This document shows positions 48,070 through 56,583 of a stretch of 64,000 nucleotides of DNA, piece by piece; position 1 is the stretch's first letter; every line of letters starts with the position of its first letter. Below the pieces are notes generated by a model. The model had not been told where the DNA came from. It did not search any database and saw only the letters and a list, made by a program, of their open reading frames with translations. The stretch is taken from sequence record PQ613263. One strand, given 5' to 3'. Position numbers and translations under genes: made by a program. Source of the stretch: Shigella phage Moonfish.

Positions 48070-48576
48070 TTATTTACTGCTTCTCGCAGCTACTGGTTTG
48101 TTTTCCTGGTTATTGTACTTGCCTGTGTATGTGGCAGGTTCTTGAACCAGATGAAATAATACTTGAGCTATCCCGGAACCAGCCGGGATATGTAATTTCT
48201 TACGTCCGTGATAGACCAGTTCAAGGGTAAGATACCCTTTCCATCCTGGTTCAATCACGGTATTGAACACTGATAATGCACGTCTTGCCCATGTAGACTT
48301 ATCGTGAACGATTGCTACACAGGATGGGGACATGTTGAACTTCTCAATGGCTGAAGCCAATGCGAACTTACCGAGATGGTGTGATACCTGTTTTCCATCA
48401 ATGATTTTCACCATTGGAATCAACCCAAATAAGCGATAGAAGGTAATATCTTGTTTGATACGAATATCATAACCAGCTTCACCCAACCCATAGCTTACAC
48501 CATGCTCGGATACCTTACGGTCTGGGACATCCAGTAATTGAGAGGAACGATATAGGGAATTACCGTTAACAACCAT
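48070..48576 (-). CDS. dcd: dCTP deaminase / dUTPase-superfamily protein
   Basis: Motif VIEPGWKGYLTLEL resembles the dCTP deaminase signature; 168 aa. Confidence 0.5.
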   Translation of the reverse strand: MVVNGNSLYRSSQLLDVPDRKVSEHGVSYGLGEAGYDIRIKQDITFYRLFGLIPMVKIIDGKQVSHHLGKFALASAIEKFNMSPSCVAIVHDKSTWARRALSVFNTVIEPGWKGYLTLELVYHGRKKLHIPAGSGIAQVLFHLVQEPATYTGKYNNQENKPVAARSSK

Positions 48577-49751
48577 TATTTCATTCCTTTAGGGATATGA
48601 ACTACCTCCCCAAAAGGTACGGTAGCACTAGGATTATTCAGAACACACCATATGATAGGGATATCAAATGGTAATTCCTCCATTGGATGAACATACATAT
48701 CGGAGAATATGATTGCAGCGGTTGGCTTATTCTTAATAATCCAATCCCGTACTGGCACAAGACTTGTACCACCACGGCCCGTAATCTTAATCTCTTCAAA
48801 AGTATCTTCTTCAGTGATGTCTATTTCTTCTTGGATAATATCGTCGAAGGTAATTAAGGACATCTTCTTAGGATTGAACTGGCTCTTAACGTAGGCAACC
48901 TCAGAGTTAAAACGCAGAGAGTCAGCACTACTAATAGAACCAGATACATCCTCAAAGTAAGCTAAGTGTCGTAAGCGTCCTTCATCATCTTCCAGGGATG
49001 GTAGATAGATGTCAGTGAAACGACGGTTAGGTCTGGCCCACGTATAACGTGAGTCATCAATGTCAGTGAAGAAATCCATCAAGACTTCCTGCCATGGAAC
49101 TACTGGCTTAAGGAATTGGGTAATAACCTCTTCCATATGACCAGCACCCTTACCAGGCATTGTTCCACCAGCCATCTTCTGGCTTTGCATCGCACGTACT
49201 ACGTTGTTGACAACAGCACCCTGGGACTGCCCCGGAGTGGGAGCTTTCATGTCGCCAGCAAGACCTGCTCCAGCACCCCCTGACGGCTGCTGCCTTTTCT
49301 GAGGGTTCTTCATCAGGTCATCGTAGATGTCTTCTTCAACCCATCCTTTGTATTGAGGGTCTTTGCAAATACCTTCGTCGATACCAGTGAACTTGTAACC
49401 ATCTTCCTCTAACTGAAGATTAATGAAGTGGTCACATGCCTGGTTCCAGACTTCTGGGTCACGGCTTCCACATCGGATGCCATGCAGATATGCCACATGC
49501 CAGAGTTCGTGCATTAATACGGTTTCTCTGGCATCTGGACACATCCAGACAAAGAAATCGGGATTGAAATGGAGTTCTATCCCATCAGTACATGCAGTGG
49601 GACAATCCTCACGTCTCCATGAGAATTTAAGGCTACACAGCAATGAACCAAAAAACGCTGCGCTGCGTCCAAGAAATGCGTTGGCTTGTATTCTATCGTA
49701 CTCCCTCATTAACTGTTCATCAGTGAGGGTATGTGAAGGTATGTTATTCAT
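48576..49751 (-). CDS. VWA-domain protein with N-terminal metallopeptidase-like domain (partner of the MoxR-like ATPase)
   Basis: HExxH in LMHELWHVAYLH; MIDAS-like FEDVSGSIS; 391 aa. Confidence 0.45.
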   Translation of the reverse strand: MNNIPSHTLTDEQLMREYDRIQANAFLGRSAAFFGSLLCSLKFSWRREDCPTACTDGIELHFNPDFFVWMCPDARETVLMHELWHVAYLHGIRCGSRDPEVWNQACDHFINLQLEEDGYKFTGIDEGICKDPQYKGWVEEDIYDDLMKNPQKRQQPSGGAGAGLAGDMKAPTPGQSQGAVVNNVVRAMQSQKMAGGTMPGKGAGHMEEVITQFLKPVVPWQEVLMDFFTDIDDSRYTWARPNRRFTDIYLPSLEDDEGRLRHLAYFEDVSGSISSADSLRFNSEVAYVKSQFNPKKMSLITFDDIIQEEIDITEEDTFEEIKITGRGGTSLVPVRDWIIKNKPTAAIIFSDMYVHPMEELPFDIPIIWCVLNNPSATVPFGEVVHIPKGMK

Positions 49752-49845
49752 TAAGATGCTCCATGATTAGGGTGATAGCCATACAGTTTTTCAGCTGCTT
49801 TTCTAGCGTCTATGGCATCCTGCTTTTCAGCAAAAGTGCCTAAAC

Positions 49846-50199
49846 TTACCAGATGGAATCTCGTTTATGCCAGTACACCCCAGTTACTCCACTGGAATTA
49901 GTTACACGTTTCTTTTGGTTTCTACTGTTAGTTTTGCTGTCCACCAACCTAAAGTTACTTAATAGATTGTTAACCCTATTATGGTCTATGTGGTCAACCT
50001 GCATTCCCTTTGGTATAGGTCCATTGTGCATTTCCCATATGACACGATGCACTTTGTAGCTTTTGCACTTATAGTTAAAACACAGATACCCATCACCATT
50101 TAAAGAGCCAACCCTGCCCCCAGCAATGGCCCTTGAGGACAATGTAACTTTCCAGAATAGCTCACCATTTTCATAAACGAGTATGTCATTCCAGTTCAT
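49846..50199 (-). CDS. HNH homing endonuclease (free-standing)
   Basis: HRVIWEMHNGPIPKGMQVDHIDHNRVNNLLSNFRLV; wedged between the AAA and VWA genes. Confidence 0.55.
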   Translation of the reverse strand: MNWNDILVYENGELFWKVTLSSRAIAGGRVGSLNGDGYLCFNYKCKSYKVHRVIWEMHNGPIPKGMQVDHIDHNRVNNLLSNFRLVDSKTNSRNQKKRVTNSSGVTGVYWHKRDSIW

Positions 50200-50202
50200 A
50201 GA

Positions 50203-51255
50203 TTATCCGTGAATGTAACGAGAGATATTGGCAGCAGCCTTACGCCATTCAGGGGTAGCCTGAATTTCTGGTAATGCTCTACCTACTGTACGGAAGTACA
50301 GAATCTTATGAGTGAACGTTTTAAAGCGTTCAATGTACTGAAGAACATCAGCGAAGTTTTCTTCAGTAGTTTTGTTAGCCAGATGGTTAACGGTAGCCCA
50401 ACACAGGTTGTTATCTTCCGGTAGTGCACAGCCCATAGGGTCTTTGACTACTTTCTCAATCGTAATCATACGATTGTATACCTGAGTGAACTGAACAAAT
50501 TCTGTAGCCTTACCAGCAGTAACGTGGCCTGCATAATAGATAGAATCTTCATCAGGCAGAGCACCTTCTGGTCGGTTCTTGAGGTCTTTATTAACAAAGT
50601 CCCAGGTACGAGGGCAACAGAATGTTTTGTTCTTGTGGGCAGGATCGAAGTCATGCAGATAACCAGGGTTAGCATGTAAGAATGCAACCAGACGCTCGTC
50701 CCATTCCTGTGGAATCATTACGTCTTCAACAAAGATGTCGAAGTTAAGTTCCATTTCGAAGTGGACAACTCGAGACTGCATTGCAGTACCTAGTGGGTTA
50801 ACAATGGCACGGTCAGTAGCTTTGTTACCAGCACAGACAATCATCACATTAGGGTGAAGTTTTTTCTGACCAGTCATGCGGTCAAGAATTAGTTTGTATG
50901 CAGCAGCTACTACTTCTTTCTTAGCTGAGTTGAACTCATCAAGGAACAGGAGCCATCCATTGTAACCTTCAGGGATTTCATCCCCTTCAATTGGGAACAA
51001 GTCAGCGAATGGAATAAACTCTGCACGGTCACCATTACGGAATGGTAGACCTGATAGGTCTTCTGGGGCAGAAGTAGACAGACGATGGTCAATCAGCTTC
51101 ATACCAAATTCATCTGCAACAGAACGAATAATTGCAGATTTACCCATGCCTGGTGATGAAGTCAGGAACGGTACGTTACCTGCTTGTAAGGCACGGATAA
51201 TAAAGTTACGGGCTTGACGTGTGTTACATACAGTCAAGGAGTCAATGCTTGCCAT
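50203..51255 (-). CDS. MoxR-like AAA+ ATPase
   Basis: Walker A SSPGMGKSAI, Walker B LLFLDEFN; 350 aa. Confidence 0.55.
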   Translation of the reverse strand: MASIDSLTVCNTRQARNFIIRALQAGNVPFLTSSPGMGKSAIIRSVADEFGMKLIDHRLSTSAPEDLSGLPFRNGDRAEFIPFADLFPIEGDEIPEGYNGWLLFLDEFNSAKKEVVAAAYKLILDRMTGQKKLHPNVMIVCAGNKATDRAIVNPLGTAMQSRVVHFEMELNFDIFVEDVMIPQEWDERLVAFLHANPGYLHDFDPAHKNKTFCCPRTWDFVNKDLKNRPEGALPDEDSIYYAGHVTAGKATEFVQFTQVYNRMITIEKVVKDPMGCALPEDNNLCWATVNHLANKTTEENFADVLQYIERFKTFTHKILYFRTVGRALPEIQATPEWRKAAANISRYIHG

Positions 51256-52754: not shown

Positions 52755-52970
52755 GTTGTTGATGTGGTAAATCCAGTAAGCTATCCAACCGGCTAATACA
52801 AAGCATCCGGCAGAGTACGCCCCATAGTAGCAATAGGCAAACTTGGATTTATGAGCGTTAACCATAGTGAGTATTACAATAGCAGATAAAACTATCAGTA
52901 CGGTTTTAGTAATAACATCATAGATGTCTGGCATGTTGACTACCTCCAAGCAAAAAATAAAAGGCCTCAC
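52752..52970 (-). CDS. Small membrane protein
   Basis: 72 aa, two hydrophobic helices. Confidence 0.3.
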   Translation of the reverse strand: MRPFIFCLEVVNMPDIYDVITKTVLIVLSAIVILTMVNAHKSKFAYCYYGAYSAGCFVLAGWIAYWIYHINN

Positions 52971-52988
52971 ACCCGAAGGTATGAGGCC
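52952..52988 (-). terminator. Rho-independent terminator after the RNA polymerase II gene
   Basis: Hairpin ggcctca...tgaggcc preceded on + by AAAAAATAAAA. Confidence 0.5.
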
Positions 52989-52994
52989 AGTTTA

Positions 52995-53222
52995 TTAACT
53001 TAATGCATAATCCGTTTCAAGAATGTCCTGCCAGAGGCTGTCATCCAGCTTACCCGCAGAGAACTCTTGTCCCAGTACCTGAGATAGGATGAAGCCCAGC
53101 AAGTCACTCTTAGCAATGTCAGATAGAATCTGATTGTACTGACGACGTAGGTCATTACCATAGTTAGGATGACAACGAAAACCATTAGTTAAACGAGTCG
53201 TTAGCTCGCCCTTACCTTCCAT
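52995..53222 (-). CDS. RNA polymerase II large subunit, C-terminal segment (downstream exon or fragment)
   Basis: Ends WQDILETDYALS, resembling the T7 RNAP C-terminus LRDILESDFAFA; overlaps the HNH ORF stop. Confidence 0.5.
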   Translation of the reverse strand: MEGKGELTTRLTNGFRCHPNYGNDLRRQYNQILSDIAKSDLLGFILSQVLGQEFSAGKLDDSLWQDILETDYALS

Positions 53223-53856
53223 GATTAACATGAAAGCCATATGTAGCATCTGCTTGTTTACGAGCAAGCATTGCCTCCTCAAGTGTGTCGTACGTACCCA
53301 GACCGATCTGTTTGCGATTGACTGTGATGTGTGCCTGAAATCTACCAGAAGGCAGTATTCTCACACCGTTCACTTTGCTTGAAGTATTACTAGATAAACT
53401 CATATTCATCTGGTTCTGTCTGCTGGTTACATTTCTCAAATTAGACCAACGATTGTCGTTTCTAGTATGATTGATGTGGTCCACCTGGTTAGGTGTTTCC
53501 CCAGTTTCCATTATCCAGATTATTCGATGTAGTAAGTACTCTTTGCGGCCCAGGCTAACGGATAGATACCCTTCTTTGTGAGGATACCCCACAATTGTTC
53601 CGGCTAACCCACTGGCAGAGTCATAACGATGAGTCACTAGCCCACTATCCCTGTCATACCTTAAAACCTTCTGCAAAGATTCTTGGGTAATATTACCCAA
53701 GTTTATTATTAGGTTTTTACAGGTAGAGCATAGATGACCTATTGGACTCTTTCTAGCATCATAGAAGTTACAAACAAACTCATTAGAGCATTGCTTGCAA
53801 CTACAGATAGCTGTGTACTTACCAGTTTTACGTAATATTTGAGAGTTATCTAACAT
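53212..53856 (-). CDS. HNH-AP2 homing endonuclease inserted in the RNA polymerase II large-subunit gene
   Basis: HNH motif HRIIWIMETGETPNQVDHINHTRNDNRWSNL plus AP2-like NGVRILPSGRFQAHITVNRKQIGLGTYDTLEEA; own RBS. Confidence 0.6.
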   Translation of the reverse strand: MLDNSQILRKTGKYTAICSCKQCSNEFVCNFYDARKSPIGHLCSTCKNLIINLGNITQESLQKVLRYDRDSGLVTHRYDSASGLAGTIVGYPHKEGYLSVSLGRKEYLLHRIIWIMETGETPNQVDHINHTRNDNRWSNLRNVTSRQNQMNMSLSSNTSSKVNGVRILPSGRFQAHITVNRKQIGLGTYDTLEEAMLARKQADATYGFHVNHGR

Positions 53857-54148
53857 ATGGATTCCTTAGTAATTTTGCATACAATTTCAGATTGTATCCT
53901 AACCAAGGAAGTAAGTCTCCAATTTTCACTGGAGTATCGGACTATATCATCACCCACTAATCAGTGGGGCAAGGCGCTTGGGTGGTCACTTGACTCACCT
54001 ACTCTACTCACATACGAAATGCTTTCGATAGTCTCTGAACCTTCCCTCATAGAGGGCTTGGCTGCTGATTGGCATATCCATAGGACTTAGCTTTCCAGCA
54101 ATTCACCTTGTTTTCGACACGGATTACTCCGTGAAGGATCATTTATGT

Positions 54149-55180
54149 TTAATCATGTACAGTCAATACAGGGAATGGCTTCTTAGGTAAAGTGTCCAGC
54201 ATGTCTGCTACTACCTGACGGTCAACCATAGCAATAGTGCCTGGGTCGAGATAGTCGATAATAGACATAGATAAGAATCCAGACTTCTCGTAGTGTTCCC
54301 ACAAGGTCTGTACCATTTCCATGTTACCTTCAATCTCCCCATACTCTGCTGGGCCTGTGTCGCAGAGTTCACGAACAGCAGCAACCAGGTTAGCATCGAA
54401 GTTACAACGACGCAGCATCTCGCGTACCACCATCCCATCAATAGAGTGGGTGATGTTAGCAGAGAGCATACGAGTCTTCTCTTCAGTACCCTGAACCATG
54501 CGGGTAATGTCGAATGGTTTACCTAAGAAGTTAACAGTCTGTACTTCTGGAACCATGACCTTAATGACGGCATGGAAGTTGTCAGACAATACCCATACGT
54601 AACGGTTAGCATCCGGGTTACCACATTGCAGTAAGAACTTGTTCAATGCCCAAGGCCCACTAGCAACAGTTTCCATTACATTCTCAAAAGTCTTGAGACG
54701 GATACCCTCACCGAATACTTCTTTAGGCTTAGCTTCTGAACCGTAGAATGCAGTCATAACTGCCTGCTTAGTGTCACTACGCTTAATACGAGATGCTTCA
54801 CCAAGGATGTCCAACATCTTGTGATAGATAACTGTATAAGCATCACGACGTAATGGCTTACCGTTTTCACCCATGTAGTTAACTACGTTACACAGTTCAG
54901 CAGCAGAACGGTCACCAGTCAGGCAAGCCAGTAACTGCAAGCCTGATGATGTAGCATCCAGAGCTACGGCATAGCCAATAGGCTTACCGGCTTTCATATC
55001 TTTCCATGCGTTTACACCTGCATAGAACAATGCGGATTCTTCAGCTTCATCTACCAGATTAAGCAGGTTAGCTTCGTTTTCATCGAACCAGCTAATACGT
55101 TCATCCCATGTTTTCTTATCCAGACCCATGTTATTCGCAATATCAATCTTTAAATATTCTTTCGCTGTGAAAAGCTGCAT
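54149..55180 (-). CDS. T7-like single-subunit RNA polymerase, N4 RNAP II large subunit (gp16-like), N-terminal segment ending at motif C
   Basis: Motif A ALDATSSGLQ (T7 DGSCSGIQ), motif B RSDTKQAVMTAFYGSE (T7 RSVTKRSVMTLAYGSK); ORF stops right after VHD (T7 motif C IHDSFG). Confidence 0.7.
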   Translation of the reverse strand: MQLFTAKEYLKIDIANNMGLDKKTWDERISWFDENEANLLNLVDEAEESALFYAGVNAWKDMKAGKPIGYAVALDATSSGLQLLACLTGDRSAAELCNVVNYMGENGKPLRRDAYTVIYHKMLDILGEASRIKRSDTKQAVMTAFYGSEAKPKEVFGEGIRLKTFENVMETVASGPWALNKFLLQCGNPDANRYVWVLSDNFHAVIKVMVPEVQTVNFLGKPFDITRMVQGTEEKTRMLSANITHSIDGMVVREMLRRCNFDANLVAAVRELCDTGPAEYGEIEGNMEMVQTLWEHYEKSGFLSMSIIDYLDPGTIAMVDRQVVADMLDTLPKKPFPVLTVHD

Positions 55181-55181
55181 C

Positions 55182-55763
55182 TTAAGCTCCTAGTTTCCAC
55201 GTATAGCCATATGCTTGTGCATATGTACCAATAATTGATTGTTTAATGTTTGATGGTATTCCATTTACACTGCGTGCTGCTGCACTCAGTGAATGGAATG
55301 TCTGGATGTAAATACCATCCAGTGTGTATTGCTCTACAGGGATAGCAGATTTGGTATTAATACCGTTGATTGCATCAGAGTAATACCTTCTTACATTGGC
55401 GTTTACCGTAACAACACGAATGTTATCCAGTGAGTAACCTTTATAGTCATCCAGCCTGTCAAGGCTTGGCTTCAGGTTGGTTGGGTAATCCTCTATTACC
55501 CATTTATCATACAGAGTGTGAAACTCTTTCTTTGATAACACCCATTGTTCTAGTTCCTCTTTAGTAAAAGTAACAGGATTAAACCCTTTCTTCTTGGTTC
55601 TGCTTACGCAACCGGAGTACATTTGATTAATGACTCCTTGTTTGGAATGGATAAAACGTTTCACACAGTCTTTACAGTCTGCTCTTACACCCTGTTTACC
55701 TGTGGACTGTTTATTGAACATGTCCAGAGGCAAGTTCTGCTTACATACTGAACATGTCTTCAT
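55182..55763 (-). CDS. Putative homing-endonuclease-like DNA-binding protein (Cys-rich N-terminus, NUMOD-like HTH C-terminus)
   Basis: CSVCKQ...CKDC at N-terminus; C-terminal FHSLSAAARSVNGIPSNIKQSIIG...GYTWK; stop/start within 1-3 nt of both neighbours. Confidence 0.35.
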   Translation of the reverse strand: MKTCSVCKQNLPLDMFNKQSTGKQGVRADCKDCVKRFIHSKQGVINQMYSGCVSRTKKKGFNPVTFTKEELEQWVLSKKEFHTLYDKWVIEDYPTNLKPSLDRLDDYKGYSLDNIRVVTVNANVRRYYSDAINGINTKSAIPVEQYTLDGIYIQTFHSLSAAARSVNGIPSNIKQSIIGTYAQAYGYTWKLGA

Positions 55764-55764
55764 A

Positions 55765-56583
55765 TTAATCCTCGTTTACTAACTCTTTATCTGCGAACTC
55801 TATAACTGCCTTATTGTAAGAGGTTCCCGCATAGTTAATATGGTATCCACATGCATATGTTCTTCCCCTCTTATCAAATTTATGTGCTAGTGAGAAGTTA
55901 TTACCTTCTTTGGTCACTAACTCCATTACTTCCTTAGCTGTACGGCTGTACTTCTCAAAGGCTTTAACTCGTTTCTCATAGTCCTGACGGGTTTCACCCT
56001 CTTTGGGTTTATCCATGTTAGGACGAGAGTCTTTTACATAGTTGGCAACGTCCCAGTTAATACAGAGTCGTTGGTTGTTCATACGGTTAATGTGGTCAAG
56101 GCAGACGTCCATCTCATGATGGTTCTTCTTGAGGATGATTGAGCCTTTAGATTCATAGTAGCCAGTGTCCCGATTAGTCAGGACTGGCTTAGGCTTACTG
56201 ACGATAGGTAATGGATACTGGAATGCCTCCAGTTCCATCTGAACATCTTCACTAATCTCATAAATAACACCGAACTTGTCGATGGTAGGGTCATAGTTGA
56301 AGCAGTCATTCTCTGCCATCTTATACAGACAGTCAGCGATATACTGAGCGTCATCTGAGTGACTCATGAGAGAGCCAATCATAGTCTGAATGTCAGCACG
56401 TTTATGTAGGGCAATCTGCACCATTGCATCAATGAGCAGCTTATAATCAATTTCTAAATAGGCGGCGAATGCCTTAAAGTCAATTTCTTTGGAGTCCTCA
56501 AATTCCTTCCTCATGCGAGGGAGTAATTGGTTTTTGTTGAAAAGGATTTCAAGTTGCTTCTGATGTTCAATAGATGAGTACAT
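55765..56583 (-). CDS. RNA polymerase II small subunit (N4 gp15-like)
   Basis: 272-aa ORF immediately upstream of the large subunit; sizes match the N4 two-subunit RNAP II. Confidence 0.45.
   Translation of the reverse strand: MYSSIEHQKQLEILFNKNQLLPRMRKEFEDSKEIDFKAFAAYLEIDYKLLIDAMVQIALHKRADIQTMIGSLMSHSDDAQYIADCLYKMAENDCFNYDPTIDKFGVIYEISEDVQMELEAFQYPLPIVSKPKPVLTNRDTGYYESKGSIILKKNHHEMDVCLDHINRMNNQRLCINWDVANYVKDSRPNMDKPKEGETRQDYEKRVKAFEKYSRTAKEVMELVTKEGNNFSLAHKFDKRGRTYACGYHINYAGTSYNKAVIEFADKELVNED

Follow-up and report, generated by a model that had tools for sequence, protein, structure and literature searches.

Free-standing homing endonucleases such as SegG and MobE are encoded by intron-less genes that occur sporadically and spread with co-conversion of flanking markers; the Seg enzymes are of the GIY-YIG type, and T4 MobE is placed among the canonical HNH enzymes. 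SegB of the T-even phages is encoded in the same manner by an intron-less gene located between conserved genes, which is sporadic in occurrence and spreads with co-conversion of flanking markers (PMC2330249). Phage vB_EcoP_G7C (hereafter G7C) carries five HNH homing endonuclease genes, none of which disrupts a gene, and N4 has no such selfish elements (PMC3670811). Here we analyse a stretch of 64,000 nucleotides (nt) from Shigella phage Moonfish (PQ613263; hereafter the window), in which a gene for a protein of 193 amino acids (aa) lies between the genes for the small (gp15) and large (gp16) subunits of RNA polymerase II (RNAP II). We consider it likely that this is a free-standing homing endonuclease gene, combining a PacI-type nuclease core (Tyr, no His) with a NUMOD1 targeting domain, and that it is expressed together with the polymerase subunits.

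The closest described counterpart is ORF15.1 of G7C (AEL79623.1), annotated as 'putative HNH homing endonuclease' and included in the tally of HNH homing endonuclease genes of that phage (PMC3670811), with orthologues in PGN829.1, ST4 and Bas96. It shares with the window gene its length of 193 aa, its position between gp15 and gp16, its 1-nt junctions and an identity of 86% (aa) and 83.5% (nt); unlike G7C, the window carries a diverged allele in a genome that also has a group I intron of the vB_EcoP-ZQ2 (ZQ2) type in gp16. The active site is of the rare type known from the restriction enzyme PacI (PDB 3ldy, 3m7k), which Jablonska et al. (2017) placed in His-Me finger group 20. PacI is 142 aa long, acts as a homodimer, has two Cys4 sites per subunit and no NUMOD domain, and cuts the 8-bp palindrome TTAATTAA. 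PacI lacks a catalytic His, which is replaced as base or nucleophile by an omega-loop Tyr, it holds a single metal ion through one Asp and one Asn, and its group has no Pfam model (PMC5714182, PMC4081073, PMC3384342). In contrast to PacI, the window protein has no second zinc site, possesses a NUMOD1 helix-turn-helix and is a sporadic insertion in a phage. The other structural relative, I-HmuI (PDB 1u3e), is an HNH homing endonuclease encoded inside a group I intron of Bacillus phage SPO1 and has a canonical D74-H75...N96 site (D74/H75 numbering from PMC12724721), whereas the window protein has Arg at the His position and its gene is free-standing. Profile comparison has already linked some HNH endonucleases of lactococcal Skunavirus phages to PacI, and these 'PacI-like' enzymes are likewise phage-encoded, free-standing and variably present (PMC12724721, 2025). 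They come from another phage family and host and occupy another insertion site (the morphogenesis module).

The window region is 88–92% identical to Gamaleyavirus (G7C-like, Schitoviridae) coliphages. As an earlier note on this DNA had claimed, a 193-aa open reading frame (ORF) is present between the two subunit genes, which PHROG and Pfam matches identify (Table 1), the upstream product being 97% identical in aa sequence to G7C gp15. The frame runs from an ATG to a TAA on the minus strand, and its spacing from the neighbours, previously given as 1–3 nt, is 1 nt both from the gp15 end to the ATG and from the stop to the gp16 start. This is a real and intact gene, not a chance reading frame, because its full-length homologues reach E 1e-110 or better, its ratio of nonsynonymous to synonymous substitution rates (dN/dS) is low and its NUMOD1 match exceeds the gathering threshold. 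More specifically, comparison with the G7C orthologue gave a dN/dS of 0.10 at a synonymous divergence (dS) of 0.80, indicating that the gene is maintained by selection; constraint is strongest over the nuclease core (0.048) and over the zinc ribbon (0.066).

We conclude that the protein consists of a zinc ribbon, a PacI-type His-less nuclease core and an I-HmuI/NUMOD1-type DNA-binding tail. The Cys-rich N-terminus remarked on in the earlier note proved to be a conserved Cys4 zinc ribbon, all four Cys being invariant in an alignment of 18 sequences, while among 76 family members C4, C30 and C33 are invariant and C7 occurs in at least 90%; the N-terminal zinc ribbons of PacI and Hpy99I align with it. 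A Foldseek alignment to PacI (136 columns) covers the helical linker that follows. In the AlphaFold2 (AF2) model the core is formed by strands 99–103 and 115–119 and helix 120–133, and the best structural matches of the predicted model are I-HmuI and PacI. The NUMOD-like C-terminal helix-turn-helix was likewise recovered: the peptide singled out by the note, FHSLSAAARSVNGIPSNIKQSIIG, occupies aa 156–179, and Pfam NUMOD1 (PF07453) matches aa 141–167 with 28.4 bits against a gathering threshold of 22.8. Of the domain searches that the note had proposed, only this one was positive, as the Pfam models HNH, GIY-YIG and Endonuclease_7 gave no match at E up to 1, GIY-YIG had none in PHROG or NCBIfam either, and the NCBIfam search returned nothing meaningful. 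In PHROGs, phrog_1035 'endonuclease VII' matches the full length (E 3e-28), and the PADLOC model 'homing endonuclease' matches weakly (E 4e-4). The labels 'HNH' and 'endonuclease VII' are therefore unconfirmed by curated profiles, given the lack of Pfam and NCBIfam nuclease matches, and the nuclease domain is visible to profile and structure comparison only.

Alignments of 18 and of 76 relatives (31–91% identity) showed C4, C30, C33, P99, D102, R103, Y110, N123, S158 and W189 to be invariant and C7, W88, S100, D106 and N114 to be nearly so, and neither contained a conserved His anywhere in the protein. The core motif, PSxDRxDDYKGYxLDNIQxxTxxxN, reads as an HNH-like beta-beta-alpha-metal motif with Arg in place of the catalytic His: in the hmmsearch alignment R103, unchanged in all 76 sequences, stands opposite the His of the I-HmuI D-H pair. 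PacI (GVDRSDSFEGYSPQNARLACFICN) has D92, R93, Y100, N104 and N113 at a spacing identical to that of D102, R103, Y110, N114 and N123 (D+8 to Y, Y+4 to N, N+9 to N; PacI residue numbers from the PDB sequence alignment, residue roles from reviews). D102 and N123 also align with the D and N of I-HmuI and, by analogy with PacI D92 and N113, are putative metal ligands (PMC4081073); the roles of the individual residues are likewise proposed by homology. Further evidence for a relationship to PacI is that a profile of the 76 sequences matched it with a probability of 92.7% (E 4e-7), the 99 aligned columns beginning in the zinc ribbon and reaching into the nuclease core. An exhaustive profile search with a cut-off of E 1e-30 recovered 1,960 cluster representatives, a total in which multi-NUMOD repeat proteins are included. 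The D-R...Y...N...N arrangement was present in 107 of 113 members of 180–240 aa (close homologues plus the 150 best of the profile search, filtered to that length), which shows that the lack of His is a trait conserved across the family rather than a product of decay.

The gene shows a presence/absence polymorphism at a fixed site among close relatives. Comparison with N4-like phages lacking the insert, as the earlier note had suggested, found it in 6 of the 63 phage records matching the locus, representing four phages (G7C, PGN829.1, ST4 and Bas96), and it is thus not the universal resident without endonuclease domain matches that would have spoken against the note's reading. A full spacer of 206–207 nt with a 53-aa ORF and a 9-bp hairpin takes its place in 22 of the records, others keep the gp16-proximal part of the spacer alone, alongside different inserts, and three have a paralogue at the junction. 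The occupant in pSb-1 and HK2 is a 204-aa member of the same protein family, 31–33% identical, in phages whose gp15 is 95–96% identical to that of the window, and it is an independent occupant of the same site. No second copy (paralogue) of the endonuclease gene was found in the window, and its combination of junction endonuclease and ZQ2-type gp16 intron occurs in no deposited phage of the collection. The gene is not within an intron or intein, as the sole Rfam match between 52000 and 57500 is the separate intron described below (53917–54160), and gp15 and gp16 are intact.

The flanks of the gene are mosaic, as determined from identity profiles of gp15 and gp16 in 60-nt bins. The window is closer to gene-less phages than to G7C at the 5' end of gp15 (92–97% vs 83%), and the reverse holds for the last 120 nt of that gene (85–87% to G7C vs 63–83% to gene-less alleles). 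Over the opening 60 nt of gp16, identity is 82% to G7C and 62–72% to PhAPEC5, Bp4 and HK2, which are alleles without the G7C-type gene; further in, no difference was seen. Diagnostic positions, defined as fixed in the window, locus L014 (the closest gene-carrying relative) and G7C and absent from PhAPEC5, Bp4, pSb-1 and HK2, form one cluster on each side of the gene (Table 1), of which that in gp16 is a candidate co-conversion or target-immunity tract; these flank polymorphisms also point to a candidate target zone. The dS against G7C of the endonuclease gene exceeds that of the adjoining gp16 segment (0.29). This pattern is consistent with, though no proof of, a cassette moving with short co-converted flanks, which would shield the carrier allele.

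Expression signals tie the gene to its neighbours. Its Shine-Dalgarno sequence lies inside the last gp15 codons, where the synonymous codons AAC GAG GAT form GAGGA in gene-carrying alleles only, gene-less alleles having AAT GAA GAC. In both G7C and the window the gp16 ribosome-binding site is supplied by the 3' end of the endonuclease gene, which occupies the entire inter-subunit spacer. The native gp16 leader with its hairpin, found in gene-less alleles, is the ancestral state and is gone from the window. This conserved hairpin, GGCUCUCCA-UAG-UGGGGAGCC (9-bp stem, 3-nt loop), lies 22 nt upstream of the gp16 ATG in alleles lacking the G7C-type gene (PhAPEC5, locus L002 2812..2880; also Bp4, pSb-1 and HK2) and is absent from the window and G7C. 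No promoter-like site was seen between gp15 and gp16 exon 1 and no minus-strand terminator-like site at or between the gp15, endonuclease and gp16 junctions, and a strong terminator-like hairpin with a T-run directly 3' of gp16 exon 2 probably terminates the gp15-endonuclease-gp16 transcription unit. An RNA structure masking the ribosome-binding site, as in some T4 homing genes, was looked for and not found, the endonuclease and gp16 start regions folding no better than shuffled sequence (z +1.4 and +0.4). We infer that the endonuclease gene is co-transcribed and translationally coupled with the polymerase subunits.

We favour a homing endonuclease as the probable identity of the gene product, which agrees with the endonuclease-like reading of the earlier note and refines it in three respects: the core is His-less, a neighbouring element is an intron, and the orthologue was already annotated. 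The gene resembles those of SegB, SegG and MobE in being intron-less, inserted between conserved genes and sporadic among relatives, and differs in that their cleavage and homing have been shown experimentally, whereas here we infer cleavage, target site and homing. In the mechanism we propose, the NUMOD1 domain and linker would bind an extended target, and the monomer-style NUMOD1 tail suggests, by analogy, an asymmetric binding mode like that of I-HmuI. The nuclease core would cut or nick DNA through a PacI-type one-metal mechanism in which D102 and N123 hold Mg2+, R103 contacts the phosphate and Y110 in the omega loop stands in for the missing His as base or nucleophile. During mixed infection the enzyme would cleave the junction allele of phages without the gene, and repair from the carrier allele would copy the gene with about 40–125 nt of flanking sequence; the carrier allele would be immune because its flanks are recoded and its spacer replaced.

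Several observations weigh against this interpretation. The catalytic His of the His-Me finger is absent, the hmmsearch match to PacI is weak (E 0.003–1), and the protein has no Cys residues matching the CGYC...CFIC cluster of PacI, which we take to be the second Cys4 site of that enzyme. The clustered flank substitutions could also stem from ordinary recombination breakpoints. No demonstration of cleavage, target site or a homing event was found for the protein or members of its subfamily, and of the Skunavirus enzymes examined in vivo, the single PacI-like one is not one of the two reported to lower plaque numbers strongly (PMC12724721). In distant N4-like phages the gene is also conserved as much as or more than its essential neighbours (48% vs 34–35%), and conservation on a par with essential genes is not predicted for a purely selfish, decaying element.

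This last point bears on two alternatives in which the phage profits from the gene. Diverged members occur at the same junction in metagenomic and isolate N4-like genomes, and the identities of gp15, the endonuclease gene and the N-terminal part of gp16 to the window are 98, 91 and 96% in L014, 54, 51 and 51% in L010, 34, 48 and 35% in L012, and 32, 38 and 36% in Vibrio phage pVco-5. The closest sublineage has therefore long been associated with the RNAP II genes, diverging no faster than they do, which could be explained by continual transfer or by functional constraint. A different placement, immediately 3' of gp16, is seen for the family member of Acinetobacter phage XC38, Erwinia phage MIF8 and IMG/VR locus L019. 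A tie of the whole family to RNAP II loci was considered and rejected, as RNAP II genes are present at only five of the 45 IMG/VR loci that contain a member, and the closest sublineage alone is therefore site-faithful. One alternative, which we regard as unlikely, is that the nuclease is kept for the benefit of the phage, either excluding related competitors or attacking other DNA in a restriction-like manner, and owes its persistence mainly to vertical inheritance and selection rather than self-propagation. Strong purifying selection and a divergence no faster than that of the flanks across genera fit this proposal, as do the facts that PacI itself is a restriction enzyme and that free-standing phage HNH enzymes can exclude related phages (PMC12724721). 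However, the gene is missing from most close Gamaleyavirus phages and from N4, and is therefore dispensable, while the flank mosaicism suggests horizontal cassette movement; the proposal also has much in common with homing, since marker exclusion involves an identical biochemical step. Nor do we give much credence to the related idea that an N4-family sublineage of this presumably Tyr-dependent enzyme has been resident at the RNAP II junction since before the Schitoviridae genera diverged and has turned from a parasite into a partly co-opted component. It builds on a conservation at least equal to that of the neighbouring polymerase genes and on the gene supplying the gp16 translation start region in G7C-type phages, and the co-opted role may be, for example, competitor exclusion or coupling of subunit expression. 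If true, it would concern a very large class of nucleases with no match in the Pfam copy searched and routinely mislabelled 'endonuclease VII'.

The missing His also invites the proposal that the protein is catalytically dead and domesticated as a DNA-binding protein, perhaps a regulator that acts close to the RNAP II genes and has kept only its zinc ribbon and helix-turn-helix functions, like the SMAD MH1 domain. Arg replaces the catalytic His throughout the family, no Pfam nuclease model matches, and inactive His-less His-Me domains are known (PMC5714182). Nevertheless, the Asp, Arg, omega-loop Tyr and two Asn that do the work of His in PacI all recur here at identical spacing and are unchanged or nearly so in 107 of the 113 members, constraint within the gene is strongest on the nuclease core, and a patchy distribution better suits a mobile element than a regulator, which leaves this proposal improbable. 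Least credible of all, and in our judgement very improbable, is a Holliday junction resolvase of the T4 endonuclease VII type, as the phrog_1035 annotation and the RefSeq names of the PGN829.1 and pSb-1 orthologues would have it. T4 endonuclease VII also has a CxxC...CxxC zinc site, which counts in favour of such an assignment. We reject it, as there is no Pfam Endonuclease_7 (PF02945) match and the structural matches are I-HmuI and PacI; neither its His-containing site nor its resolvase fold was found.

Table 1. Features of the RNAP II locus and its surroundings, in window coordinates unless a locus is named (pLDDT, predicted local distance difference test).
Feature	Position	Strand	Basis
Endonuclease gene (orthologue of G7C ORF15.1)	55182..55763	-	ORF; G7C identity; phrog_1035; dN/dS 0.10
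Cys4 zinc ribbon, aa 1-36 (C4, C7, C30, C33)	55656..55763	-	Family alignments; PacI/Hpy99I alignment
Helical linker domain, aa 37-95	55479..55655	-	AF2 helices 41-59, 68-77, 79-90, pLDDT >90
Beta-beta-alpha-metal core without His, aa 96-135 (D102, R103, Y110, N114, N123)	55359..55478	-	AF2 and conservation
NUMOD1 / I-HmuI-like helix-turn-helix DNA-binding domain, aa 136-193	55185..55358	-	
Shine-Dalgarno GAGGA of endonuclease gene, inside last gp15 codons	55769..55773	-	Direct sequence reading
Shine-Dalgarno UAGGAG of gp16, inside last endonuclease codons	55187..55192	-	Direct sequence reading
Endonuclease-linked substitution cluster, gp15 nt 696-738	55846..55888	-	7/7 diagnostic positions of gp15 nt 1-800
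Endonuclease-linked substitution cluster, gp16 nt 6-36	55145..55175	-	9/10 diagnostic positions of gp16 nt 1-430
RNAP II small subunit gene (N4 gp15-like, 272 aa), upstream	55765..56583	-	PHROG 'N4-like RNA polymerase' phrog_2166 E 8e-115
RNAP II large subunit ORF, 343 aa, downstream	54149..55180	-	PHROG 'RNA polymerase' phrog_2051 E 5e-145; Pfam RNA_pol
gp16 (N4 gp16-like) exon 1	54151..55180	-	Collinear with G7C gp16 nt 1-1030
gp16 exon 2	52995..53182	-	phrog_2051 positions 340-401; aligns to G7C gp16 nt 1031-1218
Group I intron with HNH_3-AP2 ORF (53212..53856), separate mobile element	53183..54150	-	Rfam RF00028, 91 bits, threshold 50
Terminator-like hairpin and T-run, directly 3' of gp16 exon 2	52963..52988	-	11-bp stem, 7 GC pairs
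Hypervariable patch, gp16 nt 781-1029	54152..54400	-	Nucleotide identity to relatives
HNH_3 ORF (117 aa) followed by out-of-frame AP2-like fragment	49760..50199	-	Pfam HNH_3 E 9e-19
ORF splitting gp16	L014 5114..5674; L006 3723..4271; L008 1411..1938		No Pfam match; phrog_1035 match

The earlier note had also pointed to an HNH-AP2 ORF in the large-subunit gene, and thus to two mobile-element-like insertions within 2.6 kb of the RNAP II locus. Both are real, with the refinement that the HNH-AP2 ORF is carried by a group I intron (Rfam match 53917..54160, minus strand) and lies downstream of the intron catalytic core. Alignment to G7C gp16 placed the exon boundaries at 54151|54150 and 53183|53182, giving an intron of 968 nt, inserted in the Cys344 codon immediately after the motif-C 'HD', whose 5' splice site is preceded by U and which ends in G; the spliced exons encode an intact gp16 of 405 aa. 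The same intron, 94% identical, is found in vB_EcoP-ZQ2, which is without the junction endonuclease and where it is annotated merely as a split polymerase and an HNH gene. Erwinia phage MIF8 and metagenomic locus L010 also have related introns in gp16. Just upstream of the intron site, gp16 has a hypervariable patch (dN/dS 0.33) with 43–67% nt identity to G7C, PhAPEC5 and HK2, the rest of the gene being 90–98% identical. It was considered as an intron co-conversion tract and rejected, as it is divergent even from ZQ2 with the same intron (63–88%), and it is therefore a hypervariable region that is not demonstrably linked to the intron.

Two further sets of ORFs were observed. Between an AAA ATPase gene (50203..51255) and a gene for a 391-aa product (48576..49751), an HNH_3 ORF is followed by an out-of-frame AP2-like fragment, which looks like the remains of a third endonuclease, an HNH-AP2 homing gene that has been frameshifted or truncated. 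In L014, pVco-5 and XC38, gp16 is split after about 143–150 aa by an ORF of 175–186 aa, around which no Rfam intron was detected. Compared directly, the splitting ORFs of L014 and pVco-5 are 41% identical and share the motif LSxDxIEPSKGYxxGNVQWLxWxxNRAKG, another His-less PacI-like variant (D-Q or D-K) without NUMOD1.

The general interpretation is prior art for the G7C orthologue, and the finding is ordinary save for the His-less PacI-type active site; it will be unsurprising to specialists in phage mobile elements, and the practical gain lies in correct annotation. 'Endonuclease VII' is a mislabel, the active site is of the His-less type, and gp16 is split by an intron. Taken as a whole, the RNAP II locus of this genome harbours a pair of independent selfish elements, one a free-standing endonuclease gene and the other a group I intron encoding its own HNH-AP2 endonuclease, and splicing is needed to give an intact large polymerase subunit. 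The phage family that includes the protein is large, its nuclease domain has no matching Pfam model, and its members are routinely mislabelled 'endonuclease VII' or plain 'HNH'. Such enzymes could yield new long-target nickases or cutters. The His-less PacI-type site has been characterised in a restriction enzyme alone, and phage homing enzymes may be a second setting in which beta-beta-alpha-metal catalysis depends on Tyr.
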